Below are positions 18,713-55,094 of a stretch of 64,000 nucleotides of DNA, piece after piece. The stretch spans positions 234-64,233 of the forward strand of contig CANRGD010000003.1 of NCBI GenBank assembly GCA_947630105.1, given 5' to 3'. The first letter of the stretch is position 1; every line of letters begins with the position of its first letter. The notes under the pieces were generated by a model. That model made no database searches, was not told the origin of the DNA, and was given only the letters and a program-made list of their open reading frames with translations. The position numbers were made by a program, and so were the translations under genes. The stretch is from an uncultured Bacilli bacterium (GTDB lineage: Bacteria > Bacillota_I > Bacilli_A > RF39 > UBA660).

Positions 18713-20440
18713 ATGCATATCAAAAAAACTAAATCTAAAAATTATGAACATTATTCTATTATTTATGATGTTAATATTAATGGGAAAAGAACTTCTAAAG
18801 TTTATGAGAATATTGGCAATTATGATAAACTTAAACTTCGTGCTGGTAATGAAGATCCAATTTCTTGGTTAAATAATTATGTTGATAATTTAAACCAAAA
18901 AATTAAAGAAGAAAGTTTACCTTCTATTTTGAAAAAATATCCTAATAAAAAAATCGATAAAAATGTTAAACAATCGTTTAATGCTGGTTACTTATTCTTA
19001 CAAAAAATTTATTATGATTTAAGTATTAATAATATTTGTAATAATATTAAAGATAAATATCAATTTCATTATGATTTAAATAATATTTTATCTAATCTTA
19101 TATACTCTAGAATTATTTATCCTTCAAGTAAGTTAAAGACTTTGGAATCTTCTAAAAACTTCCTTGAACAACCTAACTTTACTTATAATGATATTTTAAG
19201 AAGTTTGGAAGTGTTATCTAAAGAAAGTGATTATATTCAATCTGAGCTTTATAAAAACAGTTTAAAATATTCTAAAAGAAATGATAAAATTTTATTCTAT
19301 GATTGTACTAATTATTATTTTGAAATTGAAGACGAAGATGATTTTAGAAAGTATGGCAAAAGTAAAGAAAATCGTCCTAACCCAATCATGGGAATGGGAT
19401 TATTTCTTGATGGCGATGGTATTCCTTTAACTTTTGATACTTTTGATGGAAGTAAGAATGAACAAGTTACTTTAAAACCTTTGGAAGAAAAAATAATAAA
19501 TGATTTTAATAATCCTAAATTCGTTGTTTGTACTGATGCCGGTTTATCTAGTATTGCTAATAGAAAATTTAATAATAAAAGCAATCGTAAATTTGTTACT
19601 ACTCAATCTTTAAAAAAACTAAAACAATTTTTAAAAGAATGGTCACTAGATTTATCTGAAGGTTGGCATTTACCTGGAATTGATAAAACTTTTAATATTT
19701 CTAAATTAAGAAATGATGATGAATTAATTAACAAATATTACGATAAAATATTTTACAAAGAAAGATGGATTAAAGAAGATGGGATTGAACAAAGACTTAT
19801 TATTACTTTCTCTCCTAAATATCAAGAATATCAAAAACATATTAGAGAAAAACAAATTCAAAGAGCAATTAACATTATAGAAAAGAATCCTAAAAAAATA
19901 AAAAGTAATAACGAAAATGATCCCAAAAGATTTATTGAAGTTATTTCTACAACTAAAGATGGTGAGATTGCTGAAGTAAACAATTATAATCTAAATCAAG
20001 AAAAAATAAATGACGAAGCTTTATATGATGGTTTATATGCCGTTTGTACTAATTTAGAAGATAATGTAGAAGAAATAATTAGAATTAACAAAAGAAGATG
20101 GGAAATTGAAGAATCTTTTAGAATTATGAAAACTGAATTTAAAGCTAGACCTGTTTATTTATCTAGAGAAGATAGAATTAAAGCACACTTTCTTACTTGT
20201 TTCTTATCTTTAGTTGTATTTAGATATTTAGAAAAGAAACTTGATGAAAAATACACTGTTTCAGAAATTATTGATACTTTAAAAAAATATGAATTGAAAA
20301 ATGAACAAATTGGCTATTCTCCAATTTACACTAGAACTGATATAACTGATTTATTACACGAAAAATTCGGCTTTTGCACTGATTATGAAATTATAGATAA
20401 TAAAAATATTAAAAAAATTTGTAAACAAACAAAAAATTAA
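18713..20440 (+). CDS. IS1634-family DDE transposase
   Basis: 575 aa. N-terminus HIKKTKSKNYEHYSIIYDVNINGKRTSKVYENIG resembles IS1634-group transposases. IS4-type R-x3-E-x6-K signature (RWEIEESFRIMK). Confidence 0.8.
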   Translation: MHIKKTKSKNYEHYSIIYDVNINGKRTSKVYENIGNYDKLKLRAGNEDPISWLNNYVDNLNQKIKEESLPSILKKYPNKKIDKNVKQSFNAGYLFLQKIYYDLSINNICNNIKDKYQFHYDLNNILSNLIYSRIIYPSSKLKTLESSKNFLEQPNFTYNDILRSLEVLSKESDYIQSELYKNSLKYSKRNDKILFYDCTNYYFEIEDEDDFRKYGKSKENRPNPIMGMGLFLDGDGIPLTFDTFDGSKNEQVTLKPLEEKIINDFNNPKFVVCTDAGLSSIANRKFNNKSNRKFVTTQSLKKLKQFLKEWSLDLSEGWHLPGIDKTFNISKLRNDDELINKYYDKIFYKERWIKEDGIEQRLIITFSPKYQEYQKHIREKQIQRAINIIEKNPKKIKSNNENDPKRFIEVISTTKDGEIAEVNNYNLNQEKINDEALYDGLYAVCTNLEDNVEEIIRINKRRWEIEESFRIMKTEFKARPVYLSREDRIKAHFLTCFLSLVVFRYLEKKLDEKYTVSEIIDTLKKYELKNEQIGYSPIYTRTDITDLLHEKFGFCTDYEIIDNKNIKKICKQTKN

Positions 20441-24497: not shown

Positions 24498-24502
24498 AAT
24501 GA

Positions 24503-24532
24503 AAACAACTATCTTTATAGACAGTTGTTTTT
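24503..24532 (+). terminator. Rho-independent terminator
   Basis: AAACAACTATC / GACAGTTGTTT stem (one mismatch) followed by a T-run. Confidence 0.65.
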
Positions 24533-24587
24533 ATAGTTAATAAAAAATTAAATTTACACAAAAATTGTCAATAGAAATATATGAAAA

Positions 24588-24617
24588 TTGATATGGGGGG
24601 GGGTCATATTATATACT
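24588..24617 (+). promoter_or_regulatory. Putative promoter TTGATA - 18 bp - TATACT with a G9 homopolymer (24595-24603) in the spacer
   Basis: Hexamers and G-run read directly. AAGGAGG RBS at 24639-24645 and ATG at 24656 lie downstream. Confidence 0.6.
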
Positions 24618-24655
24618 TATAAAGTAAATAATAAAAATAAGGAGGAAAAAATAAA

Positions 24656-25420
24656 ATGGAAAAAGATAGAAATACAAAAATTATTTCAATCGTTTCAATG
24701 TTTATAGCTGTTTTATGTTTATCAATAGGTTTTGCAGCTTTTTCAAGAACATTAAATATTCAATCAAGTGCTACAGTAAACATAAGTAAAGAAAACTTCT
24801 CAGTAAAATTATCACAAACACCAAATTCACTTGTAGGAGGCAATATGGCAGGCTATGTAGAAGTAAGCCCAGAAGAAACAGATGCTAGACCAAGTTATGA
24901 TTATGAGCCTGTTGTTGCAGATAATGAGTCTGAAAGTCCTACTTTAAAAGGAATTAATGCAACATTTACAAAGCCTGGTCAATCAGTAACATATAAAGGT
25001 ATCTACATTGTAAATGATGGACAATTTGATGCAATATTAAATGGTTTAAGTATTGCTAATGTTGATGGTCAAAACAGTGCAGTTGTTTGTGAAGCTAAAG
25101 AGGGTACAAACGCTGATTATGTAAAAGAAGCTTGCAAAGGAATTAAAATGCAGATTACAATATCTTCAAATGATACTTTTAGCCCAACACCATACATAAT
25201 AGCATGGGCAACAACTGAAGAATCATACCCTGGAAATTATACTCCTGGTGCAGCAATGAATATAAAAGCTAATTTTGGTGGAAATGATAGTAGTGATGGA
25301 GAACCTCATGTTCTTGAAGTTAAATTGTCATATGAAGATGGAAGTACTGTAGCAGATGGACCTTTTGATGTAAAATTTGGAAATGTAAGTATTAATTATG
25401 GTACACAAATTGATAGTTAA
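24656..25420 (+). CDS. Uncharacterised signal-anchored surface/secreted protein, paralogue A (weak TasA/camelysin-like features)
   Basis: Strong RBS. N-terminal hydrophobic helix followed by the AAFSRTLNIQSSATV motif. Beta-rich body with TKPGQSVTYKGIYIVNDGQFDAIL. Cys pair VVCEAKEG...EACKG. Confidence 0.6.
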   Translation: MEKDRNTKIISIVSMFIAVLCLSIGFAAFSRTLNIQSSATVNISKENFSVKLSQTPNSLVGGNMAGYVEVSPEETDARPSYDYEPVVADNESESPTLKGINATFTKPGQSVTYKGIYIVNDGQFDAILNGLSIANVDGQNSAVVCEAKEGTNADYVKEACKGIKMQITISSNDTFSPTPYIIAWATTEESYPGNYTPGAAMNIKANFGGNDSSDGEPHVLEVKLSYEDGSTVADGPFDVKFGNVSINYGTQIDS

Positions 25421-25448: not shown

Positions 25449-25479
25449 AAATAGTCAATTAAAAAATTGACTATTTTTT
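25449..25479 (+). terminator. Rho-independent terminator
   Basis: Perfect 12-bp stem AAATAGTCAATT / AATTGACTATTT followed by a T-run. Confidence 0.75.
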
Positions 25480-25523
25480 ATATAAAAATATTAATAATTA
25501 GTAGAAAAATAAAAATGTTAATA

Positions 25524-25555
25524 TTGACACTGGGGGGGGGTAGTTATAGTATAAT
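25524..25555 (+). promoter_or_regulatory. Putative promoter TTGACA - 20 bp - TATAAT with a G9 homopolymer (25532-25540) in the spacer
   Basis: Consensus hexamers read directly. GGGAGG RBS at 25596-25601 and ATG at 25609 lie downstream. Confidence 0.6.
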
Positions 25556-25608
25556 AATCTCATAAGAAGAATACCAAGTTGTGTATTATTTTTATGGGAG
25601 GTACTATA

Positions 25609-26388
25609 ATGGAAAGAAATAGAAAAACAAGAATAGTTGCAATTACTTCAATGTTAATAGCTGTTGTCTTTTTAACAGTTGCCTATGCGCTATTTTCAAA
25701 TAATTTAAATATTCAAAATATGTCTGCTACAGTAAAGGCAAATGAAGCAAACTTCAGTGTCAAATTTTCTAACTCATCAACTAAAGTAGATGAAAGTGAT
25801 GTAATACCACATTTTACTCATGGTGCAACTGGAACTCTATTAGATGCTCATATAGATAATAGTGGGCTCAATCCTAAACTTACTAATATAGGAGCAAACT
25901 TTGATTCTCTTGAAGGATTTGATGGTTATACTGACTATAAACAAGGTTGGGCAGGTTATGATTTATATGTTATAAATGATGGAGAATATGATGCTTATTT
26001 AAAAAGTATAAAAATAGAAAATGTTCCAGGTTATAATAAGCCATTAGTTTGCATACCAACTGAAGGAACCTCACAAACATTAGTAGATGAAGCTTGTAAA
26101 TCATTTAGAGTTTTAGTTGGCACTAATAGTAAATATATTGATGTTACATCAGAGGGGATAAAACATGGAGATAGTAATTACATTAATCAACCAGGAAATT
26201 ATACAGGAATAACTGGCATAAAATTAGCAAAACCAGATACTAGTAGAACTTATCCTTATTCTAATCATTATGTTTCTATAAGTATAGGTGCCCTAAGTGA
26301 AAATACTGGTGCAGCAGCTTCCGCAATTGATGGGTCATATGAAGTTAAAATTGGTGATGTAACCGTTGAATATAGTACTCAAGATTAA
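25609..26388 (+). CDS. Uncharacterised signal-anchored surface/secreted protein, paralogue B
   Basis: Start set at ATG 25609 (MERNRKTRIVAITSM...), which has a GGGAGG RBS. Shares the N-terminal (A.FS..LNIQ..SATV...ANFSVK.S), central (Y.(V/I)NDG..DA.L...VC...EGT...V.EACK) and C-terminal (VK.G.V...Y.TQ) motifs with paralogue A. Confidence 0.6.
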   Translation: MERNRKTRIVAITSMLIAVVFLTVAYALFSNNLNIQNMSATVKANEANFSVKFSNSSTKVDESDVIPHFTHGATGTLLDAHIDNSGLNPKLTNIGANFDSLEGFDGYTDYKQGWAGYDLYVINDGEYDAYLKSIKIENVPGYNKPLVCIPTEGTSQTLVDEACKSFRVLVGTNSKYIDVTSEGIKHGDSNYINQPGNYTGITGIKLAKPDTSRTYPYSNHYVSISIGALSENTGAAASAIDGSYEVKIGDVTVEYSTQD

Positions 26389-26408
26389 ATTTAAATAAAA
26401 TTAATTAT

Positions 26409-26441
26409 AAAAAAAATAGCTTTTATAGAGCTATTTTTTTT
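26409..26441. terminator. Bidirectional terminator between convergent genes
   Basis: AAAAATAGCT / AGCTATTTTT stem with A/T-run flanks. Confidence 0.6.
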
Positions 26442-26442
26442 A

Positions 26443-28347
26443 CTATTTTACAACCTTAATTGTTATGGTATCACAGAAGTTTCTAATTGACCCTTCAAGA
26501 CCTAACGTACATACTGTTCCTGGAGAAGAATCTCCATTATCACAAGCTTCCACAAACACAAAATTAAATTTATGGTTTGGATTCATTTGTTGAATTATTG
26601 CTTTAGTTTGAGCTCCACTAGATCCTGCTTGAATATTTAATTCTCCTGTCTTACTTTTGTCACAAGTAGAAGTAGAAGAACTACTAGAATTATTTGAATT
26701 ATTATTTTTATTTTCAACTTCTTTTGCTTTACCACTACTAACTGTAATAGTGATTGTTGTATTTTTAGAAATTTCACTACCTGCACTCATAGATTGAGAA
26801 ATAACTTTTCCTTCAGCAACACTATTACTATTTTTATAAACAAAATTATAATTTAAGCCTAATTTTTTAAGTTTACTAGCAGCATCATTTTTACTTAGTC
26901 CAACTAAATTAGGAACTTTTATTGCTACACCATCAGAAATTATAACCATAATAACATCATCATTTTTTATAATTTCTCCTTTTTTATATGAATAACTAAT
27001 TACTTCTCCACTAGGAATATCTTCATTAAATTCATGTTTTTCTTCATACTTAACATCATATTTATCAGCCCATTCTCTAAATTCATCATAAGATTTAACA
27101 TTAGGCATTTTTAAACTACCTTTAGAAATAACAACTTTTATTGTAGTACCTTGCTCAATAATATCACCTTTTTTATGACTAGCACTAATAATATTATTTT
27201 CTTTAACTTTAGCATCATATTTGTCACTAAATTCTAATTTTAAACGATTTTTAATAACCCAATCAGTTATCTCTGTTAAATCCATTTTTGTTAACTCAGG
27301 AACTTTTATTTCCGCACCCTTACTAAACGTAACAATAACTTTCTCATCTTCATTTTCAACTTTTACCATTTTTCCAGCTTTTATACTTTGCTTCATTACT
27401 AAGTCACGTTTTATATCATCAGAATAATCTCTATCAAATTGATATAAAATATGGTGTTGTTTTAAATATAATTCCACTTCAAATTTTGTTTTATTAGTAA
27501 AATCAATTAATTTAACTTCACTAAATCCTAATTCTTCTCCATAGGAAAAAGTTAATTTTAATTTTTCATCTCTTTCTAAATTACCACTTTTACTTTGCTC
27601 AATAACTGTATCTTGTGCTTTATCTGATTCAACAAATTCAACTTCTACATTAGTTAAATAATTTTTTAATACAAAATCTGTTACTTTATCAACATTCCAC
27701 GAAATCATATTTGGAACAACTACTTCTTTATTAGGATTAGGCCCTTCACTAACTGCAACAGTTAGTTCTTTAACATCCTCCAGTTTTGTACCTGCTTTAA
27801 TATCTTGACTTATAATTTCATACTCAGAAACCATATCACTATATTCATATTCTTGTTTAATTTCTACATTATTTTTGGCTGCCCATTTCATAACTTCAGT
27901 TAAACTTTTATTAGAAAAGTCTTTTACTGTAGTATTATCACTAATATTTATAAAATTAAGATTAGTAACAATACCATATCCAAAATAAGCTAATAAAAGA
28001 AAGGAACTAAATAATATCATACTTTTATTTTTTCTATTAGTTGTAAAAGCTACTGCTACATATACAACTGTAAATAATAATATTAATAATGAATTAATTA
28101 AAGTATCTATATTAGAATTATTTTTATTAAAAAACAAATTAACAATAAAATATATAATTGCCAATATTAAAACTACAAATAAGAAAAAATGTACCACTAT
28201 ATGTTTATTTTCTTTATTTTTTTTCTCCTCAATTTCACTACGTTTTTTAGTAGTTTTTATATCTTCTTTAATTTCATTTTTAGACTTCTCATTAGTCATT
28301 ATATCTTTTTTATCTTTATTTTTCTTATTAGTATTTTTATTATCCAT
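26443..28347 (-). CDS. Kinase-less membrane protein with six PASTA-like repeats and a Cys-containing C-terminal domain
   Basis: Lys-rich cytoplasmic N-terminus and 3-4 TM helices. Six ~65-aa repeats, the last canonical (VPNLVGLSKNDAASKLKKLGLNYNFVYKNSNSVAEGKVISQSMSAGSEISKNTTITITVSSG). No kinase or transpeptidase motifs. Confidence 0.7.
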   Translation of the reverse strand: MDNKNTNKKNKDKKDIMTNEKSKNEIKEDIKTTKKRSEIEEKKNKENKHIVVHFFLFVVLILAIIYFIVNLFFNKNNSNIDTLINSLLILLFTVVYVAVAFTTNRKNKSMILFSSFLLLAYFGYGIVTNLNFINISDNTTVKDFSNKSLTEVMKWAAKNNVEIKQEYEYSDMVSEYEIISQDIKAGTKLEDVKELTVAVSEGPNPNKEVVVPNMISWNVDKVTDFVLKNYLTNVEVEFVESDKAQDTVIEQSKSGNLERDEKLKLTFSYGEELGFSEVKLIDFTNKTKFEVELYLKQHHILYQFDRDYSDDIKRDLVMKQSIKAGKMVKVENEDEKVIVTFSKGAEIKVPELTKMDLTEITDWVIKNRLKLEFSDKYDAKVKENNIISASHKKGDIIEQGTTIKVVISKGSLKMPNVKSYDEFREWADKYDVKYEEKHEFNEDIPSGEVISYSYKKGEIIKNDDVIMVIISDGVAIKVPNLVGLSKNDAASKLKKLGLNYNFVYKNSNSVAEGKVISQSMSAGSEISKNTTITITVSSGKAKEVENKNNNSNNSSSSSTSTCDKSKTGELNIQAGSSGAQTKAIIQQMNPNHKFNFVFVEACDNGDSSPGTVCTLGLEGSIRNFCDTITIKVVK

Positions 28348-31726: not shown

Positions 31727-31744
31727 CAAATTATGAGGTGTAAA

Positions 31745-32719
31745 ATGAATTTAGCCAAGAAAAAAGATTTAATATCCATTATTGTACCTTGTTATAATGA
31801 AGAAGAAACTATTCCTATTTTTTATAATGAAATAAACAAAATTTCCAAAGAAATGAAACCAGTAAATTTTGAATTTTTATTTATTAATGATGGAAGTAAA
31901 GATAATACTCTTTCTATATTGAAACACTTAGCTCATACTGATAAAAGAGTTAGGTTTATATCTTTTTCTAGAAATTTTGGAAAAGAAGCAGGAATATATG
32001 CGGGTCTTAAAAATAGTAGGGGGGATTATGTTGCTATCATGGATGTTGATATGCAAGATCCTCCTGCAATGATTCCCAAAATGTATCAAGATATAAAAGA
32101 AACTAAATATGATTGCATAGCTTTATATACAAAGTCCCATGCTGATTATTCTTTTGTTAGAAAAAAATTTACTCAGTGGTGGTACAAATTAATTAAAACA
32201 TTATCTAAAACTAAACAAATGCCTGGAGCTAGAGATTTTAGATTAATGACAAGACAAATGGTAGAAGCTATAACATCCCTATCAGAATATAACCGTTATA
32301 CTAAAGGAATGTTTGGTTTTATTGGTTTTGAAACTAAGTGGATTGCCTATGATACCCCTAACAGAATTAAAGGAAAATCTAAATTTAGTCTAAGAAAATT
32401 AATTAAATATGCTATGGAAGGTATTATTGCTTTTTCAACTACACCATTAATAATTGCTGCATATATTGGCTTGTTTTTCTGCTTAGTAGCTTTTTTAGCC
32501 ATAATAATTATCATAACAAAAACTTTAATTTGGGGAGATCCTGTTACAGGTTGGCCATCTCTTGCTTGTTTAATTGTATTTATAGGAGGTCTTCAATTAT
32601 TCTTCTTTGGAATAATGGGAATTTACTTATCTAAAATATATTTAGAAGTAAAACATAGACCTATTTATATAACTAAAGAAACAGAAAAAGGTAGTGAAAA
32701 TTATGAAAACAAATGTTGA
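31745..32719 (+). CDS. GtrB/DPM1-like polyprenyl-phosphate glycosyltransferase (GT2 with two C-terminal TM helices)
   Basis: ISIIVPCYNEEETI...INDGSKDNT...MDVDMQDPP plus two C-terminal TM helices. Start at ATG 31745 after GAGGTG. Confidence 0.8.
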   Translation: MNLAKKKDLISIIVPCYNEEETIPIFYNEINKISKEMKPVNFEFLFINDGSKDNTLSILKHLAHTDKRVRFISFSRNFGKEAGIYAGLKNSRGDYVAIMDVDMQDPPAMIPKMYQDIKETKYDCIALYTKSHADYSFVRKKFTQWWYKLIKTLSKTKQMPGARDFRLMTRQMVEAITSLSEYNRYTKGMFGFIGFETKWIAYDTPNRIKGKSKFSLRKLIKYAMEGIIAFSTTPLIIAAYIGLFFCLVAFLAIIIIITKTLIWGDPVTGWPSLACLIVFIGGLQLFFFGIMGIYLSKIYLEVKHRPIYITKETEKGSENYENKC

Positions 32720-33656: not shown

Positions 33657-33740
33657 AATAAAATAAAATTCATTTCTTTACAAGCTTATAATTAAGATAT
33701 ATAATAAAAAAGAATAACTAAAATGAAGGGGAGTTTATTT

Positions 33741-35453
33741 ATGAAAAAAAGATATGTTTTATTATTTTTATTAATTATGCTATTAACATTTCAAAAAGTT
33801 AATGCTCAAACATTAAATGGCTTAGTAAAAATTAATAATAATTATTATTACTATATTAATAATGTAAAGCAACAAGGCTTTCAAACAATAAATGGAAAAA
33901 CTTATTTCTTTAGTAGAGTAAATGATCATGCTATGCGTACTGGAATATTCGCCATAGATGGGTATTATTATAATTTTAATAATGAAGGAGTAATGCAAAC
34001 TGGCTGGTACCAAAGTGATGGCAAAAAATACTATTTTGATACTAACGGAAGACGAATATCGGGTTTTAAAAATATAGATGGAGAAACGTACTTTTTCAGT
34101 CGTGTAAATAGTAACGATATGCGTACAGGAATATTTGCCATAGATGGGTATTATTATAACTTTAATAATGAAGGAGTAATGCAAACTGGCTGGTATCAAA
34201 GTGGTGGTAAAAAATATTATTTTGATACTAACGGAAGACGAGTATCAGGCTTTAAAACTATAGAAGGAAAAACATACTTTTTCAGTCGTGTAAATAGTAA
34301 TGATATGCGTACTGGAATATTTGCCATAGATGGGTATTATTATAACTTTAATAATGAAGGAGTAATGCAAACAGGCTGGTATCAAAGTGATGGTAAAAAA
34401 TATTATTTTGATCCTAACGGAAGACGAGTAGCAGGCTTTAAAACCATAGAAGGAAAAACATATTTTTTCAGTCGTGTAAATAATAATGATATGCGTACAG
34501 GAATATTTGCCATAGATGGCTATTACTATAACTTTAATAATGAAGGAGTAATGCAAACAGGTTGGTACCAAAGTGGTGGTAAAAAATATTATTTTGATAC
34601 TAACGGAAGACGAGTATCAGGTTTTAAAACCATAGAAGGAAAAACATATTTTTTCAGTCGTGTAAATAGTAACGATATGCGTACTGGAATATTCGCCATA
34701 GATGGCTATTATTATAACTTCAACAATGAAGGAGTAATGCAAACAGGCTGGTATCAAAGTGATGGCAAAAAATACTATTTTGATACTAACGGAAGACGAG
34801 TATCAGGTTTTAAAACCATAGATGGAAAAACATACTTTTTCAGTCGTGTAAATAGTAATGATATGCGCACTGGAAAAATAATAATTGACAATTTAATTTA
34901 TTATTTTGACAATAATGGAGTATTACAAACAAATATAAAGAAACCAATTTATTATAGTCAAAAAGATTCAAGATGGCAGTTTACTACTTTTGGTTTAGGC
35001 AATATGAAAAATACTGGGTGTGCCCCAACTGCTTTAGCAATGGCTTTTTCAACTTTGTTAAATAAAACAATATTACCTACAGATGTGGCATCATACTTAT
35101 TTTACAATACTAGAGAATTTAATCGTTCAACTGCAGGGGCAAGTGGTTTAGCAGTTCAATATGCCGCTAATTATTATGGAGTAAAATGGCAAGGCCTTAA
35201 TTCCTTAAGTCAAGTAAAAGAAGCTTTAAAAAATGGTAAAATTGTTTTTGCTAATGTTGGTCCTGGAAAATTTACAAAACCAAATTTAACTCACTCAATT
35301 ATAATATATGATTTATTAAATGAATATACAGAAGCATATGACCCCTACAATATAAACAATAATGGTGTTGTATCTATAGATTTAGTCTGGGCACAAAGAA
35401 GTTTTTCAACTTATGATTTAAAAGGAGGCTATGTATTCTATGCACTTGGATAA
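33741..35453 (+). CDS. Secreted cell-wall-binding-repeat protein with C-terminal C39-like (papain-fold) cysteine peptidase domain
   Basis: Signal peptide (…FQKVNA/QT). Six 62-aa glucan/choline-binding-type repeat units (GKTYFFSRVN..MRTGIFAIDGYYYNFNNEGVMQTGWYQS.GKKYYFD.NGRR). C-terminal YYSQKDSRWQ...GCAPTALAMAFS with a later HSIIIYD. Confidence 0.75.
   Translation: MKKRYVLLFLLIMLLTFQKVNAQTLNGLVKINNNYYYYINNVKQQGFQTINGKTYFFSRVNDHAMRTGIFAIDGYYYNFNNEGVMQTGWYQSDGKKYYFDTNGRRISGFKNIDGETYFFSRVNSNDMRTGIFAIDGYYYNFNNEGVMQTGWYQSGGKKYYFDTNGRRVSGFKTIEGKTYFFSRVNSNDMRTGIFAIDGYYYNFNNEGVMQTGWYQSDGKKYYFDPNGRRVAGFKTIEGKTYFFSRVNNNDMRTGIFAIDGYYYNFNNEGVMQTGWYQSGGKKYYFDTNGRRVSGFKTIEGKTYFFSRVNSNDMRTGIFAIDGYYYNFNNEGVMQTGWYQSDGKKYYFDTNGRRVSGFKTIDGKTYFFSRVNSNDMRTGKIIIDNLIYYFDNNGVLQTNIKKPIYYSQKDSRWQFTTFGLGNMKNTGCAPTALAMAFSTLLNKTILPTDVASYLFYNTREFNRSTAGASGLAVQYAANYYGVKWQGLNSLSQVKEALKNGKIVFANVGPGKFTKPNLTHSIIIYDLLNEYTEAYDPYNINNNGVVSIDLVWAQRSFSTYDLKGGYVFYALG
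33876..34940 (+). repeat. Tandem 186-bp coding repeats (about 6 units, >90% nucleotide identity by eye)
   Basis: The unit GGxTTTAAAAxxATAGAxGGAxAAACxTAxTTTTTCAGTCGTGTAAATAGTAA... recurs every 186 nt. Confidence 0.85.
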
Positions 35454-37641
35454 AAAAATTGTAAAAATAGCTTTAACTATTTTTGCAATAAATTTAATTT
35501 TATTAACATTTCAAAAAGTCAATGCTCAAACATTAAATGGCTTAGTAAAAATTAATAATAATTATTATTACTATATTAATAATGTAAAGCAACAAGGCTT
35601 TCAAACAATAAATGGAAAAACTTATTTCTTTAGTAGAGTAAATGATCATGCTATGCGTACTGGAATATTCGCAATAGATGGGTATTATTATAACTTTAAT
35701 AATGAAGGAGTAATGCAAACTGGCTGGTACCAAAGTGGTGGTAAAAAATATTATTTTGATACTAACGGAAGACGAGTATCGGGTTTTAAAAATATAGACG
35801 GAAAAACATATTTTTTCAGTCGTGTAAATAGTAACGATATGCGCACTGGAATATTTGCCATAGATGGTTATTACTATAACTTCAACAATGAAGGCATAAT
35901 GCAAACTGGCTGGTACCAAAGTAATGGTAAAAAATATTATTTTGATACTAACGGAAAAAGAGTATCAGGTTTTAAAACCATAGAAGGAAAAACATATTTT
36001 TTCAGTCGTGTAAATAGTAACGATATGCGTACTGGAATATTTGCGATAGATGGCTATTATTATAACTTCAACAATGAAGGAGTAATGCAAACTGGCTGGT
36101 ACCAAAGTAATGGTAAAAAATATTATTTTGATCCTAACGGAAGACGAGTAACAGGTTTTAAAACCATAGATGGAGAAACGTACTTTTTCAGTCGTGTAAA
36201 TAATAATGATATGCGTACCGGTACATTTGCCATAGATGGAACAACTTATACTTTTTTAGAAAATGGTGTTATGGTTAAAGGTTGGTACAAAAAAGGAAAC
36301 AATACATACTACTATAATCAAAAAGGTCTAAAAGTATCAGGCTTTCAAACCATAGATGGAAAAACTTATTTTTTTAGTAGAGTAAATGATCACGCTATGC
36401 GCACAGGCTTTTTTGCGATAGATGGGTATTATTATTACTTTAATAATGAAGGAGTAATGCAAACTGGTAAACAATATGTAAATAATGGTGAAAGATATTT
36501 TTCTCCTAATGGAAAAATGCAAACCGGCATAGTTTCAATAAATGGCAAAAAATATTTTTATAATACTAATGGTATTTTAAGCTATGGTTTTCAAAAAATT
36601 AATGGAAAAACCTATTTCTTCAGTCGAGTAGATGATCATGCTATGCGCACAGGCTTTTTTGCGATAGATGGGTATTATTATTACTTTACAGCTGATGGAG
36701 TTATGCAAGTAGGTTTTCAAACAGTTAATGGCTTAAAAAGATTTTTTAGTAGAATTGATGGAAAAATGCGAGTATCATGGGTATCTATTGATGGTTACAA
36801 ATATTATTTTGATCCTAGTACTGGTCAAATGATAACAGGTGAACAAACTATTGATGATGTTAAATATTATTTTAATTCTGATGGAAAATTAAAAGATGGT
36901 TTCGTATCAGATAGTAAAGGAAATACCTATTATTATTTTATAGATGGAACAAAAGCAACTGGCTGGGTACGAATCCAAGGCGAAAAATATTATTTCAATA
37001 ATAATGGTATTATGATTGGCAAGAATTTAAAAAAAATAATTGACATTTCTTCACACCAAGGTCAAATTGATTGGGATACAGTAAAAGCCAAAGGTGATAT
37101 TGATGGTGTAATTGTTCGAGTTGCATCTAGTTTTAATAGTGTAGACAGTATAGATAGTCAATTTGCTCGTAATATAAGCGAATTAAATAGATTAAAAATA
37201 CCATATGGAATATATCTATATAGCTATGCTGAAGATAAAATAAGTACAGTAAATGGTCTTGGAACTATGCATGAAGGAGCATTAGATGCTAGAATAATAA
37301 TTAATTCTATAAAAAAATATAATGTAAAACTTACTTATCCTATATATTATGATTTAGAAGTTTGGGAAACTGGCAAAAATAGACTTTGGAATTCTACAAT
37401 TTATAAACCTATAATTGATGCATTTGATAAAGAAATGAAAAATGCTGGATACAACTGGCAAATATATACAAATAAAAATTGGGCTTTAACTGCCTTAATA
37501 AATTATACAAATAAAATTACTTGGATAGCCCAATGGAGTAATAACTGTGATTATCCATATAATTATAATATATGGCAATACACTTCTTCAGGAAGTATAC
37601 CTGGAATTTCTGGTAGAGTAGATATTAACGTTGGATTTTAA
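35440..37641 (+). CDS. Secreted cell-wall-binding-repeat protein with C-terminal GH25 muramidase (lysozyme) domain
   Basis: Same signal-peptide/repeat module as the upstream gene, then more diverged repeats. C-terminal IIDISSHQGQIDWDTVKAKGDIDGVIVRV...YLYSYA...YYDLE GH25 motifs. The ATG at 35431 is an alternative start. Confidence 0.8.
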   Translation: MHLDKKIVKIALTIFAINLILLTFQKVNAQTLNGLVKINNNYYYYINNVKQQGFQTINGKTYFFSRVNDHAMRTGIFAIDGYYYNFNNEGVMQTGWYQSGGKKYYFDTNGRRVSGFKNIDGKTYFFSRVNSNDMRTGIFAIDGYYYNFNNEGIMQTGWYQSNGKKYYFDTNGKRVSGFKTIEGKTYFFSRVNSNDMRTGIFAIDGYYYNFNNEGVMQTGWYQSNGKKYYFDPNGRRVTGFKTIDGETYFFSRVNNNDMRTGTFAIDGTTYTFLENGVMVKGWYKKGNNTYYYNQKGLKVSGFQTIDGKTYFFSRVNDHAMRTGFFAIDGYYYYFNNEGVMQTGKQYVNNGERYFSPNGKMQTGIVSINGKKYFYNTNGILSYGFQKINGKTYFFSRVDDHAMRTGFFAIDGYYYYFTADGVMQVGFQTVNGLKRFFSRIDGKMRVSWVSIDGYKYYFDPSTGQMITGEQTIDDVKYYFNSDGKLKDGFVSDSKGNTYYYFIDGTKATGWVRIQGEKYYFNNNGIMIGKNLKKIIDISSHQGQIDWDTVKAKGDIDGVIVRVASSFNSVDSIDSQFARNISELNRLKIPYGIYLYSYAEDKISTVNGLGTMHEGALDARIIINSIKKYNVKLTYPIYYDLEVWETGKNRLWNSTIYKPIIDAFDKEMKNAGYNWQIYTNKNWALTALINYTNKITWIAQWSNNCDYPYNYNIWQYTSSGSIPGISGRVDINVGF
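35596..37010 (+). repeat. Tandem cell-wall-binding coding repeats (first ~4 units of the 186-bp type, then degenerate units)
   Basis: 35501-35800 is near-identical to 33781-34080 (offset 1720 nt). The period is 186 nt up to ~36240. Confidence 0.8.
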
Positions 37642-51612: not shown

Positions 51613-53438
51613 AACTTACTTTTCCATTAATTAAAATATTACTAAGTATTATTCTATATTGTATTTCCTTATTTTGTTTAAATTTAAATATAAAACTATT
51701 TTTTCTTTTAATTAGTTACCTAATCATAAGTTATGAAATTTATCTTGAAGCTTATAAAAATCTTAAAAATAAAGAGTTTTTTGATGAAAATTTATTAATG
51801 ATACTTGCGACTTTAGGAGCCTTTATTATAAAAAGTTATGAAGAAGCTGTTATGGTAATGTTACTATATAATATAGGCGAATATTTATCAGACTTAGCCA
51901 TAAATAATAGTAAAAAATCTATTACTAAAATTTTAGATTTAAGAATAGATACTATAACCTTAGAAAAAAATCAAAAATTATCCACCACTTCTATTGAAAA
52001 TGCTAAAATAGGGGATATTTTTATCGTAAAACCAGGAGAGAAAATTGCCTTAGATGGAAAAATCATTGCTGGAACATCTTATCTTGATACTTATCCTTTA
52101 ACAGGTGAAGCTATTCCCCAAAAAGTAACAATTGGAAGTGAAGTCTTAAGTGGTTGCATCAATAGACAATCACTTTTAAAAGTTCAAGCAACAAGCACCA
52201 TCCACACAACAACTGCTACTAAAATAATAAAATTATTAGAAGAAGCCGAAGATAAAAAAAGTACCACTGAAAGCTTTTTTAAAAAATTTGCTAAAATTTA
52301 TACACCAGTAATAATTTTTTGTGCCTTATTAGTAGCAATTATTCCCAGTATCCTAACAAAAGATTATTCCACATGGATTTATCGAGCATTAGTTTTTTTA
52401 GTTACATCTTGTCCTTGTGCATTAGTTATATCAATTCCTTTAGGCTATTTTTGTGGTCTCGGAGCAGCTAGTAAAAAAGGCATTTTAATTAAAGGCAGTA
52501 ATGAATTAGACAAAATTCGCTCTCTTGATTATTTAATATTAGATAAAACTGGTACTATTACTAAAGGTGTCTTTAAAGTAACAAAAGTAAAATCAAATAT
52601 ATTACCAGAAAAAAAGTTAGTGCAGTTAGTTGCTTCTGCTGAAGAAAACTCTCTTCATCCGATTGCCTCAGCTATAAAATCTTATAATAAAGAAAAACTA
52701 CTACCTGTTAAAAATTACCAAGAACTAAGTGGTCAAGGAATTACTTGTACTATTAATAATAAAAAAATACTTATTGGTAATAAATACTTAATGACTAAAA
52801 ATAATATTAAAGTAGCCGAAATTAATGAAATTGGTACAATCATTTATGTAAGTATAAATAATACCTATACTGGTTACATCGTAATAGCTGATGAAATAAA
52901 AGAAAGTTCCCAAAATTTATCATCCTTAAAATCATTCATTAAAAAAGATATCATTATTTTATCAGGGGATAAAAATGAAGTTGTTTCAGCTGTAGCTAAA
53001 AAATTAAAGATAGCAAAATATAAAGGAGAATTATTACCAACCGATAAAATAAAATATGTCCAAGAATATAAAAAAAATGGAGTAACTGCTTTTGTAGGAG
53101 ATGGAATTAATGATGCCCCTGTAATAAAAATTTCTGATATTGGTATATCAATGGGCATACTAGGAAGTGATGCCGCTATAGAAACTAGTGATGTAATACT
53201 TATGAAAGATGATTTAATGGCTTTAAAAGACGCTATTAATATATCAAAATTAACTAACAGAAAAGTCCTAGAAAGTATAATTTTTGCTTTAATTATAAAA
53301 TTATTAGTCTTAATTTTAGCTTTATTTGGTATTAGTACTATTTCTTTAGCAGTTTTTGCTGATGTTGGAGTAACTATTTTATCAATTTTAAATGTCTTAA
53401 CAATTATGCTTAGTAATAATAAAAAGGAGCTTAAATGA
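51609..53438 (+). CDS. Heavy-metal P1B-type ATPase (Cd/Zn/Co-type CPC motif) lacking an N-terminal HMA domain
   Basis: TGEAIP, SCPCALVIS, DKTGTITKG, GDGINDAP. The protein begins directly with TM helices. Confidence 0.9.
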   Translation: MKLTFPLIKILLSIILYCISLFCLNLNIKLFFLLISYLIISYEIYLEAYKNLKNKEFFDENLLMILATLGAFIIKSYEEAVMVMLLYNIGEYLSDLAINNSKKSITKILDLRIDTITLEKNQKLSTTSIENAKIGDIFIVKPGEKIALDGKIIAGTSYLDTYPLTGEAIPQKVTIGSEVLSGCINRQSLLKVQATSTIHTTTATKIIKLLEEAEDKKSTTESFFKKFAKIYTPVIIFCALLVAIIPSILTKDYSTWIYRALVFLVTSCPCALVISIPLGYFCGLGAASKKGILIKGSNELDKIRSLDYLILDKTGTITKGVFKVTKVKSNILPEKKLVQLVASAEENSLHPIASAIKSYNKEKLLPVKNYQELSGQGITCTINNKKILIGNKYLMTKNNIKVAEINEIGTIIYVSINNTYTGYIVIADEIKESSQNLSSLKSFIKKDIIILSGDKNEVVSAVAKKLKIAKYKGELLPTDKIKYVQEYKKNGVTAFVGDGINDAPVIKISDIGISMGILGSDAAIETSDVILMKDDLMALKDAINISKLTNRKVLESIIFALIIKLLVLILALFGISTISLAVFADVGVTILSILNVLTIMLSNNKKELK

Positions 53439-54637
53439 AAAAGAAAATTTTACTTATAATATTATCTATTATTTTATTAATTTTAATTATTGTAGGCTTT
53501 GTTTTTGCATACCAAAAATATCGTATTGCTCATGCCACAATTAAAGTTACTTTACAGGATAATTTAAATATTGAAGTGTATAGTAATGTAAAATTAAAAG
53601 ATCTTATTAAAAATATTAATGGTCAAATAACTAAAAATTTCTCTATTGATACAACTACCTTAGGAGAACAAGAAATTTCATTTTCCTACAAAAATGATGA
53701 CAACATTAAAGTTCCCTATAAATTTAAAATTAATATTGTAGATACAACTCCACCCATTATATCTCAATACAATACTTATTCTATAACAGTTAATCAAGAT
53801 GAAAATGTAGAAGAACAACTATTTTGTGGTGACAATTATGATGATAAACCCAAATGTGAATTAATTGGTAATTATAATAAAGATGAAGTTGGTACATATC
53901 CCGTAACATTTAAAGCAACAGATAGCTCTAATAATATATCTTCCTATGATTTTAATATAGTTGTCAAAGAACCACCAAAAAATTCCTCATCAACGCCATC
54001 TTTACCAGTAACAACTGATTTTAATGAAGTAAAAAATAATTACAAAACAAAAGATAATAAAATAGGAATTGATGTATCCCATTGGCAAGGAGATATTGAT
54101 TTTTCCCAAGTGAAAGAAGCAGGAGTTGAATTTGCTATTATCCGTTTAGGCAGTCAACGAGGAATAGATGGAGAATATTTTATTGATGATAAATTTGAAC
54201 AAAATATAAAAGGATTTAATGAAGTTAATATCCCAGTAGGAATCTATTTTTATTCTTATTCTAAAAATAAAAAAGCTGCTATAAAAGAAGCTAAATGGAT
54301 TATAAATAAAATAAAAAAATATGATATATCTTTACCAATTGTTTTTGATTGGGAAAATTGGTCTTTTTATCAAGAATTTAATTTAAGTTTTTATCATTTA
54401 ACAGAAATGGCTAATGCATTTTTAGAAACTATTGAAAAAAAAGGCTATACGGGAATGTTATATAGTAGTAAAAATTATTTAGAAAATATATGGATGGATA
54501 CTCCATATCCAATATGGCTTGCTCATTATACAGATAAAACTGATTATGAAGGCTCATATAAAATATGGCAATTATGTAGTAATGGCAAAGTAGCAGGGAT
54601 AAAAGATAACACTGTAGATATAGATATTATGTATTAA
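53435..54637 (+). CDS. Membrane-anchored GH25 muramidase with an Ig-like (DUF5011-type) domain
   Basis: N-terminal TM. TPPIISQ...GTYPVTFKATDSSNN Ig-like module. GIDVSHWQGDIDFSQVKEAGVEFAIIRLG...FYSYS...FDWE GH25 motifs. ATGA overlap with the ATPase stop. Confidence 0.8.
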   Translation: MKKKILLIILSIILLILIIVGFVFAYQKYRIAHATIKVTLQDNLNIEVYSNVKLKDLIKNINGQITKNFSIDTTTLGEQEISFSYKNDDNIKVPYKFKINIVDTTPPIISQYNTYSITVNQDENVEEQLFCGDNYDDKPKCELIGNYNKDEVGTYPVTFKATDSSNNISSYDFNIVVKEPPKNSSSTPSLPVTTDFNEVKNNYKTKDNKIGIDVSHWQGDIDFSQVKEAGVEFAIIRLGSQRGIDGEYFIDDKFEQNIKGFNEVNIPVGIYFYSYSKNKKAAIKEAKWIINKIKKYDISLPIVFDWENWSFYQEFNLSFYHLTEMANAFLETIEKKGYTGMLYSSKNYLENIWMDTPYPIWLAHYTDKTDYEGSYKIWQLCSNGKVAGIKDNTVDIDIMY

Positions 54638-54661
54638 AAAAAAGGAGTTAATCCTTTTTTT
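54636..54661. terminator. Bidirectional terminator between convergent genes
   Basis: AAAGGA / TCCTTT stem flanked by A8 and T7 runs. Confidence 0.55.
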
Positions 54662-55094
54662 ATAGAAATTTTTTTAATTTTTCTACACAAACTTCTTGCA
54701 TTTTAACATATTCATCAATTAACTTTTCCACATCTTTATCTGTATCTTTATGATTCAATAATTTTCTACCTTCAATAATACCCATATTAGTACCTTGTAA
54801 TAAAAGTTCCGCTAATTTTGAAGTTGTACTATCAGTTATAGTTTTCATTTGAATACTATACCAAGTCATAACTTTATTAGCTTTAGAAGTTTCATGTGGT
54901 TCTTTACTACTATATTCTGGATAAAGTTCATTAATTTTATCATGTATCTTTTTATAGTCAGCATATTGCTTTTCTAGTAAACTTTTAAAATCTTTTTCCG
55001 TAACCTTTTCCATAATAAATTCCATGGCATCCATTCCCATGCAACATCCTTTATTTAATTCATCTAATACATTAACATTTTTTTTTTCATTCAT
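54660..55094 (-). CDS. Small cytoplasmic helical protein (possibly DUF2383-like four-helix bundle)
   Basis: 144 aa, predicted all-helical. LNKGCCMGMDAMEF motif. The family assignment is from memory only. Confidence 0.4.
   Translation of the reverse strand: MNEKKNVNVLDELNKGCCMGMDAMEFIMEKVTEKDFKSLLEKQYADYKKIHDKINELYPEYSSKEPHETSKANKVMTWYSIQMKTITDSTTSKLAELLLQGTNMGIIEGRKLLNHKDTDKDVEKLIDEYVKMQEVCVEKLKKFL

Follow-up and report, generated by a model that had tools for sequence, protein, structure and literature searches.

The vlp genes of Mycoplasma hyorhinis form a tandem multigene family with a poly-A tract in the promoter spacer. In Campylobacter jejuni most of the tracts are located inside coding regions and act by frameshift. 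Poly-G tracts between the -35 and -10 hexamers tune tp0126 of Treponema pallidum and porA of Neisseria meningitidis (PMC7864442). Tracts of the tpr genes vary between G7 and G11 with G9 being predominant, and G9 is also the main length of the tract in the tprL promoter of T. pallidum (PMC7864442). The contingency tracts of C. jejuni have a modal length of G9, which was attributed to a length-dependent bias of insertion and deletion (PMC3401435). From matrix-fibre loci of the TasA/Abp/Tafi type the pairing of an archaeal-type signal peptidase I with DUF5305 was described as a hallmark. Here we present two genes for secreted proteins, p1 and p2, from an uncultured gut Bacilli bacterium, each with a G9 tract in its predicted promoter, together with a comparison of related loci from metagenomes.

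The window (the whole 64-kb stretch of DNA analysed) has a G+C content of 24.9% (pG = 0.137, pC = 0.112). It contains only two G/C runs of more than 6 nt, namely G9 copy 1 and G9 copy 2 (Table 1). From the base counts of the window about 1.3e-3 G/C runs of 9 nt or more are expected, compared to two observed, and a chance origin of the two tracts is excluded. Homopolymers become prone to frequent slippage from about 7-8 nt, a length that both tracts reach, and both far exceed what the base composition predicts. The first-pass annotation had placed copy 1 correctly to the base, whereas its statement that no other G or C run exceeds 5 nt has to be corrected: a G6 is located at 32019-32024 inside a glycosyltransferase gene (31733-32719), as the sole other G/C run above 5 nt. 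The sole A/T run of at least 10 nt is an A10 on the minus strand (55078-55087), which covers codons 3-6 (ATG AAT GAA AAA AAA AAT) of a 144-aa DUF2383-like ORF (54660-55094); it could be a slippery tract of the frameshift type, or just Lys codons.

In all other respects the window is ordinary chromosomal DNA of a walled Firmicute. Among its gene products are PcrA, LigA, GatAB, a GGDEF protein, an LtaS-like sulfatase, LCP and an IS transposase, as well as a glucosaminidase/Ig surface protein, a PASTA protein, an O-antigen-ligase/glycosyltransferase cluster and choline-binding GH25 enzymes. The LCP gene and the large glucosaminidase/Ig-repeat gene flank the transposase gene (575 aa, DDE_Tnp_1, 18713-20440), which is located 4 kb 5' of the two G-tract genes. 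Two choline-binding-repeat proteins are encoded at 33723-37641 and 53435-54637, of which one carries a C39-like peptidase domain and the other a GH25 muramidase domain; together with a further GH25 enzyme they indicate a cell wall that is probably decorated with choline.

Table 1. Location of the p1 and p2 genes and of their predicted control elements in the window
Feature	Position	Strand	Basis or remark
Terminator-like hairpin and T-run	24499..24534	+	Inverted repeat of 16 nt, 88% complementary; ends the upstream gene for a 1249-aa glucosaminidase/Ig-repeat surface protein
-35-like hexamer TTGATA, promoter 1	24588..24593	+	Sequence and promoter scan
G9 copy 1, promoter spacer	24595..24603	+	Sequence; 1 nt past the -35 hexamer
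-10-like hexamer TATACT, promoter 1	24612..24617	+	18-bp spacer at G9
Weaker alternative -10 TATATA, promoter 1	24610-24615	+	16-bp spacer
Ribosome-binding site AAGGAGG of p1	24639..24645	+	Sequence
p1, 254 aa	24656..25420	+	ORF, ATG at 24656
Terminator-like hairpin and T-run 3' of p1	25449..25481	+	Perfect arms of 12 nt
-35 hexamer TTGACA (consensus), promoter 2	25524..25529	+	Sequence and promoter scan
G9 copy 2	25532..25540	+	Sequence; 2 nt (ct) past the -35 hexamer
Overlapping -10 candidates, promoter 2	25547..25555	+	TAGTAT 25547-52, 17 bp at G9; TATAAT 25550-55, 20 bp at G9 and 17 bp at G6
Ribosome-binding site GGGAGG of p2	25596..25601	+	Sequence
p2, 259 aa	25609..26388	+	ORF, ATG at 25609
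Hairpin bordered by A/T runs, separating p2 from the convergent PASTA-domain gene	26403..26447	.	Inverted repeat

Promoter 1 reads TTGATA-t-G9-tcatatta-TATACT. This pair of hexamers with its 18-bp spacing, and the AAGGAGG and ATG downstream of it, had been proposed previously; all of them were found at their coordinates, and a promoter scan lists the same pair. The first-pass annotation had further reported the same layout before a paralogous gene 940 bp downstream. A second tract does recur there, in the order -35, G9, -10, but the distance is 937 bp and the hexamers and spacing differ, with TTGACA-ct-G9 being followed by TAGTAT at 17 bp or by TATAAT at 20 bp. Of these two, TATAAT is the consensus and the better hexamer. 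The sequence supports the proposed position of the tract, namely within the spacer of a sigma-70-type promoter-like site that precedes a monocistronic gene for a surface or secreted protein. Promoter 1 is isolated by the hairpin that ends the upstream gene, while the hairpin beyond p2 looks like a bidirectional terminator. Because hairpins follow the upstream gene, p1 and p2, each of the two genes forms a self-contained unit of terminator, promoter, ribosome-binding site, gene and terminator.

The two proteins are paralogues (31% identity, E = 2e-33). Profile searches with p1 and p2 gave no match in Pfam, NCBIfam or PDB sequences, the TasA/camelysin models included, and by sequence they do not fall into the TasA family. 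An exact-protein look-up returned no record for P0002, the PASTA neighbour or p2, the last of which was tried with both start codons; the sole recorded form of p2 is a shorter call, P0142. The family of homologues is of modest size and was found only in MAGs of uncultured gut "Bacilli / Mollicutes / Mycoplasma sp. CAG", originating from human, rabbit, ruminant and chicken samples.

p1 begins with a signal/anchor helix that carries the SipW/TasA-like motif GFAAFS; a beta-sandwich with two cysteines follows. In the family alignment the N-terminus (MEKDRxTKIIAIxALxVAVVGLSIGFAAFSNxLxIQSSATV) and a C-terminal motif (ADGDFxVxFGDIxLNYSS) are conserved, and the two cysteines are invariant. The signal region, with the consensus VVGLSIGFAAFS, contains no conserved cysteine in the alignment, and the cysteine of p1 itself is not conserved. 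AlphaFold2 predicts the signal/anchor helix, a poorly ordered segment and the beta-sandwich. A first model of p1, which still contained the signal helix, matched nothing more specific than generic CBM/jelly-roll folds. The mature part was remodelled with 124 sequences (pLDDT 81, pTM 0.80), and Foldseek placed the TasA fibre 8aur at rank 3 with E = 2e-3 and a probability of 0.95, at a TM-score of only 0.35 and with similar scores for CBM-type sandwiches; the likeness of the modelled fold to the TasA fibre is suggestive but weak.

An archaeal-type signal peptidase I adjoins the family gene in 75 of the 86 long related loci, and a DUF5305 gene in 74 of them. The peptidase belongs to TIGR02228 (86 bits, cutoff 52) and is also SipW-like. 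Within the 64-kb window neither a signal peptidase gene nor a DUF5305 gene was found. From the signal/anchor helix, the beta-sandwich and the linkage of the family genes to a dedicated signal peptidase I we infer that p1 and p2 are surface or secreted proteins, a localisation that is well supported. They are probably processed in a SipW-like manner, as is TasA, and it is reasonable to regard the family as putative TasA-like fibre subunits.

Homopolymers were scanned in about 1.37 Mb of fetched related loci. Every G/C run of 9 nt or more in these loci is located just upstream of a family gene, and always with G on the sense strand. The rabbit-gut MAG Lapin-030__bin25 harbors at least 15 family paralogues with the layout of -35, G-run and -10, distributed over contigs L034 (7 of 10 tandem paralogues), L074 (3), L082 (3, one of them with G7) and L179 (2). 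These promoters read TTGACC(c)-G7/8/9-nnnnTGaTATTAT, with an extended -10 and a spacer of 16-17 bp at G9. The 15 share a common cassette ...TTTGTTTTCCACAA...TTGACC(c)-G9-nnnnTGaTATTATAAAC with a near-consensus -35. At the L082 paralogue with G7, whose neighbours have G9, the spacer would be 14 bp. In a third lineage (JGI contig L168) a G10 is located 39 nt before the ATG of a 406-aa family member.

The array in L034 (3300-11400, the same region as in L093) comprises 10 tandem paralogues 3' of parC and a mazEF toxin-antitoxin pair; three of them (starts 4126, 4933 and 6588) are without the G9 promoter present at the other seven. Among these seven G-tract genes the promoter cassettes are 87% identical to each other and the coding regions 66%, so that the putative switch is conserved while the products have diversified, which is the pattern of variable-antigen families. 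Upstream of the -35, at a distance of about 20-35 nt, the motif (A)TTTGTTTTCCACAA(T)TG is conserved at every G-tract promoter in L034, L074, L082 and L179 and may be where a regulator binds. In the window the rabbit-MAG motif TTTTCCACAA shows no enrichment, and neither of the two promoters has it.

At the same promoter position other members of the family have poly-T: T17 in L157 (2903-2919), T13 in L161 (84-96) and L166 (2255-2267), T14 in L167 (3957-3970) and T11 in L084 (5959-5969). L084 belongs to a chicken-gut MAG, the other four originate, as does L168, from the JGI metagenome Ga0326511. The T11-T17 runs are preceded by a TGAC/TTGC -35-like element and followed by a GATATTATAAT -10 region, as in the rabbit G9 cassettes. 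Among the A/T runs of 11 nt or more in the 1.37 Mb, five of six are located just upstream of a family gene, and these five are the T11-T17 runs. To judge from these sequences, a homopolymer in the spacer is a recurrent property of the predicted family promoters, whichever base it is made of. As the run at this spot can be G or T, a function based on length is favoured over one specific for G.

Three further runs were noted in the related loci. In a second rabbit MAG an A16 (L013:5849-5864) is located about 136 nt before an ATG, in a locus with a family gene. An A10 (L144:645-654), also in a locus with a family gene, is part of a promoter-like site TTGAAA...TGgTATAAT. On a contig of a Hadza MAG a G8 (L026:271-278) follows TTAACAt next to an unidentified gene.

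Tract length was compared between near-identical contigs, which are consensus assemblies from different ENA samples of one series with a coverage of 1.3-7.7x. L094 and L093 (about 7x) align over 5226 bp with 0 mismatches and 2 gaps, which are G8 versus G9 at two of five tracts. L180 and L179 (about 7x) align over 5626 bp with 0 mismatches and 1 gap, which is G8 versus G9 at one of two tracts. L001 (about 1.3x) differs from the window over 1637 bp by 2 mismatches and 1 gap, with G10 instead of G9 at copy 2 and G9 in both at copy 1, and L181 (2409 bp in two segments) has G9 at copy 2 as does the window. L034 and L093, which possibly derive from the same sample, are identical over 12413 bp (0 mismatches, 0 gaps), including 7 of 7 tracts. 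In total, 4 of the 17 tract comparisons differ by ±1 G; elsewhere in the approximately 34 kb of compared sequence there are 2 clear substitutions and one 46-bp deletion. The same contigs contain 14 A/T runs with a length of 7-8 nt, none of which varies. Length polymorphism with conserved flanks is therefore present, on consensus sequences of low coverage. Invariance of the tract between strains, which the first-pass annotation had named as evidence against a switch, was not what the public assemblies revealed: near-identical contigs differ by ±1 G at the tracts and almost nowhere else. These comparisons provide strong circumstantial evidence that the tracts are hypermutable.

The cross-strain comparison for the window itself comprises four short ENA contigs. 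GTDB representative genomes and metagenome contigs (JGI, ENA) contained no contig of the window's own species, the best matches having 34-37% identity. L002, a 940-bp contig, begins inside copy 1 and ends inside copy 2, and L085 begins inside a G tract. A widespread breakage of assemblies, with many homologue contigs of about 900 bp being bounded by G tracts, was considered and rejected, since none of the four contigs checked (L095-L098) ends in a G run. L181 (sample ERZ27249118, 2.4x) lacks about 46 bp corresponding to 25589-25634 of the window (L181:498-509). The deletion is bounded by the short direct repeats AGTTGTGtATTA and AGTTGcaATTA and takes out the ribosome-binding site and the start codon of p2, with the G tract still being G9; it may represent a natural null allele of p2.

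We consider it likely that the G9 runs form a promoter-spacer homopolymer contingency locus, a candidate switch in which slippage would alter the spacing of -35 and -10 and hence the promoter strength of each secreted-protein gene. Each G9, placed directly 3' of the -35 hexamer, would constitute a hypermutable simple-sequence tract within a sigma-A/sigma-70-type promoter spacer, and each promoter would serve one monocistronic gene for a secreted beta-sandwich protein. Slipped-strand mispairing during replication would lead to gain or loss of single G's, which would change the -35/-10 distance and the rotational phasing and with them the promoter strength of that gene alone. Each paralogue could in this way be switched or dimmed independently and reversibly, resulting in a population that is heterogeneous for the exposed proteins (phase or antigenic variation). 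We infer that the hexamers act as a promoter in use, that tract length affects transcription, that switching is frequent and reversible, and which roles the proteins have. The gap between the -35 and the tract is always 0-2 nt, and the tract is never located elsewhere in the spacer. With nine G's, copy 1 has a predicted spacer of 18 bp (or 16) and copy 2 one of 17 bp (or 20), compared to 16-17 bp in the rabbit cassettes. As G9 is near the spacing optimum for most of the promoters, a change by ±1-2 G should dim or silence a paralogue.

It is unlikely that G9 is instead a fixed cis-element, be it a family-specific regulator site or a structural element of the spacer, with the ±1 differences being sequencing or assembly noise. 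G9 is present at 13 of the 15 promoters of the rabbit MAG (reference assemblies) and at both window promoters, and this length holds despite a 1-nt difference in the offset between -35 and tract among the cassette types. Such uniformity fits a fixed functional element, and also a mutational equilibrium, for which the modal G9 of C. jejuni provides a known explanation (PMC3401435). All G tracts are located on the sense strand, which a spacing mechanism alone would not require, and the upstream motif of the rabbit cassettes could be the site of a regulator; that motif, however, is missing from the window promoters, and the replacement of G by T11-T17 at the same position in a sister lineage indicates that the identity of the base is not conserved. 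Homopolymer sequencing or PCR error could contribute to the length differences at the low coverage of the compared contigs, G9 being error-prone on Illumina. Noise as their sole source is argued against by the lack of indels other than these length differences; in two comparisons, each longer than 5 kb and at about 7x, no other difference at all is present.

A tract that varies could also act in another way, either by moving the site of an activator or a repressor with respect to the core promoter, as in fim of Bordetella and opc or nadA of meningococci, or from the transcribed leader on the mRNA. For the T. pallidum tprL gene the start site is 4 nt downstream of the poly-G (PMC7864442). The spacers at G9 range from 16 to 20 bp between promoters, and in the rabbit cassettes an element some 20 nt 5' of the -35 is conserved. 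We nevertheless regard this kind of action as improbable: near-consensus -35 and -10 hexamers, the latter in some cases extended, border the tract in the window and in at least 15 related promoters, no -10-like element is present upstream of the tract at a suitable distance, and the distance from the -10 to the ribosome-binding site and ATG is typical of a short leader. That the runs are an artefact of two-colour Illumina chemistry, which is known to produce poly-G at read ends, or of chimeric assembly or chance, is hardly credible. They are internal to long contigs, occupy the same positions in independent assemblies from at least five samples and three lineages and have an identical promoter context every time, with about 0.001 expected by chance. 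A fixed regulator site, an action through distal regulators or the mRNA leader, and an artefact are all less likely than spacing-based phase variation.

Phase-variation work on gut commensals has been centred on invertible promoters. With spacing-based phase variation as the preferred reading, uncultured, genome-reduced gut Bacilli are suggested to use slippage of promoter homopolymers instead, as do Neisseria, Treponema and Mycoplasma, and the varied products would be an expanded family of secreted, probably fibre-forming proteins. The mechanism as such is textbook knowledge; new are the lineage, the protein family and the evidence at population level. A literature search returned no description of the p1/p2 family or of G-tract promoters in these lineages. 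The sequence signature of -35 hexamer, G or T run and -10 could be used for finding variable surface genes in metagenomes, it would explain the assembly breaks at the tracts, and it points to candidate antigens exposed to host or phage in organisms that cannot yet be cultured. The multigene scale, the interchange of G and T across lineages and the evidence for variation at the metagenome level make the locus worth following up.

More tentatively, the data may point to an undescribed antigenic-variation system of uncultured gut Bacilli, made of TasA-like, SipW-processed fibre or matrix subunits that number at least 15 in a single rabbit-gut genome, every paralogue having a homopolymer switch of its own (G9 or T11-T17, depending on the lineage). 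We consider this possible but rather doubtful. If true, one clone could present many combinations of filament subunits to host immunity or phages, and this would be the first SSR-driven multigene system of surface variation in a Firmicute commensal with a cell wall, and likewise the first one based on TasA-type fibres.

Compared to the matrix-fibre operons of TasA and of the archaeal bundling pili (Abp, Tafi), the p1/p2 homologues resemble these in being usually located beside signal peptidase I and DUF5305 genes and in an N-terminus similar to SipW-type signals. They differ in that no Pfam or PDB sequence match exists, the TM-scores are about 0.35 and the window holds no peptidase or DUF5305 gene; fibre formation is putative.

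What the locus has in common with porA of N. meningitidis and tp0126/tpr of T. pallidum is a surface-protein gene whose promoter contains a G homopolymer of about 8-11 nt. In porA and tp0126 the length of the tract sets the -35/-10 spacing and hence the level of transcription, to which the window locus is likened from its sequence. As for tpr, several paralogues each have their own tract with G9 being predominant (PMC7864442). The hosts of porA, tp0126 and tpr are diderm pathogens and the products outer-membrane proteins, whereas the host here is an uncultured, walled gut Bacilli bacterium with 25% GC, the genes encode a Sec/SipW-type secreted beta-sandwich family, and the tract abuts the -35 hexamer. 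C. jejuni is similar in that its genome is A+T-rich and its phase-variable surface genes are marked by rare G/C runs, for which nine is the modal length (PMC3401435); unlike most of the C. jejuni tracts, the G tracts described here are all located in promoters.

The vlp system of M. hyorhinis resembles the present one in its tandem paralogues for surface proteins, each with a conserved promoter cassette and a spacer homopolymer (compare the L034 array and the T11-T17 variant), and in a conserved N-terminal signal region combined with a divergent exposed part. Vlp proteins are lipoproteins with repeat regions, whereas the p1/p2 family is without lipobox and without internal repeats, and no Vlp-type lipobox cysteine was found in its alignment. 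Further differences to vlp are the tract in the window, which consists of G, and the cell wall of the organism, as indicated by its PASTA, LCP and choline-binding genes. By analogy, and with protein families distinct from both, the functional parallel of the p1/p2 locus would be porA/tp0126 and its organisational parallel the vlp genes of M. hyorhinis.
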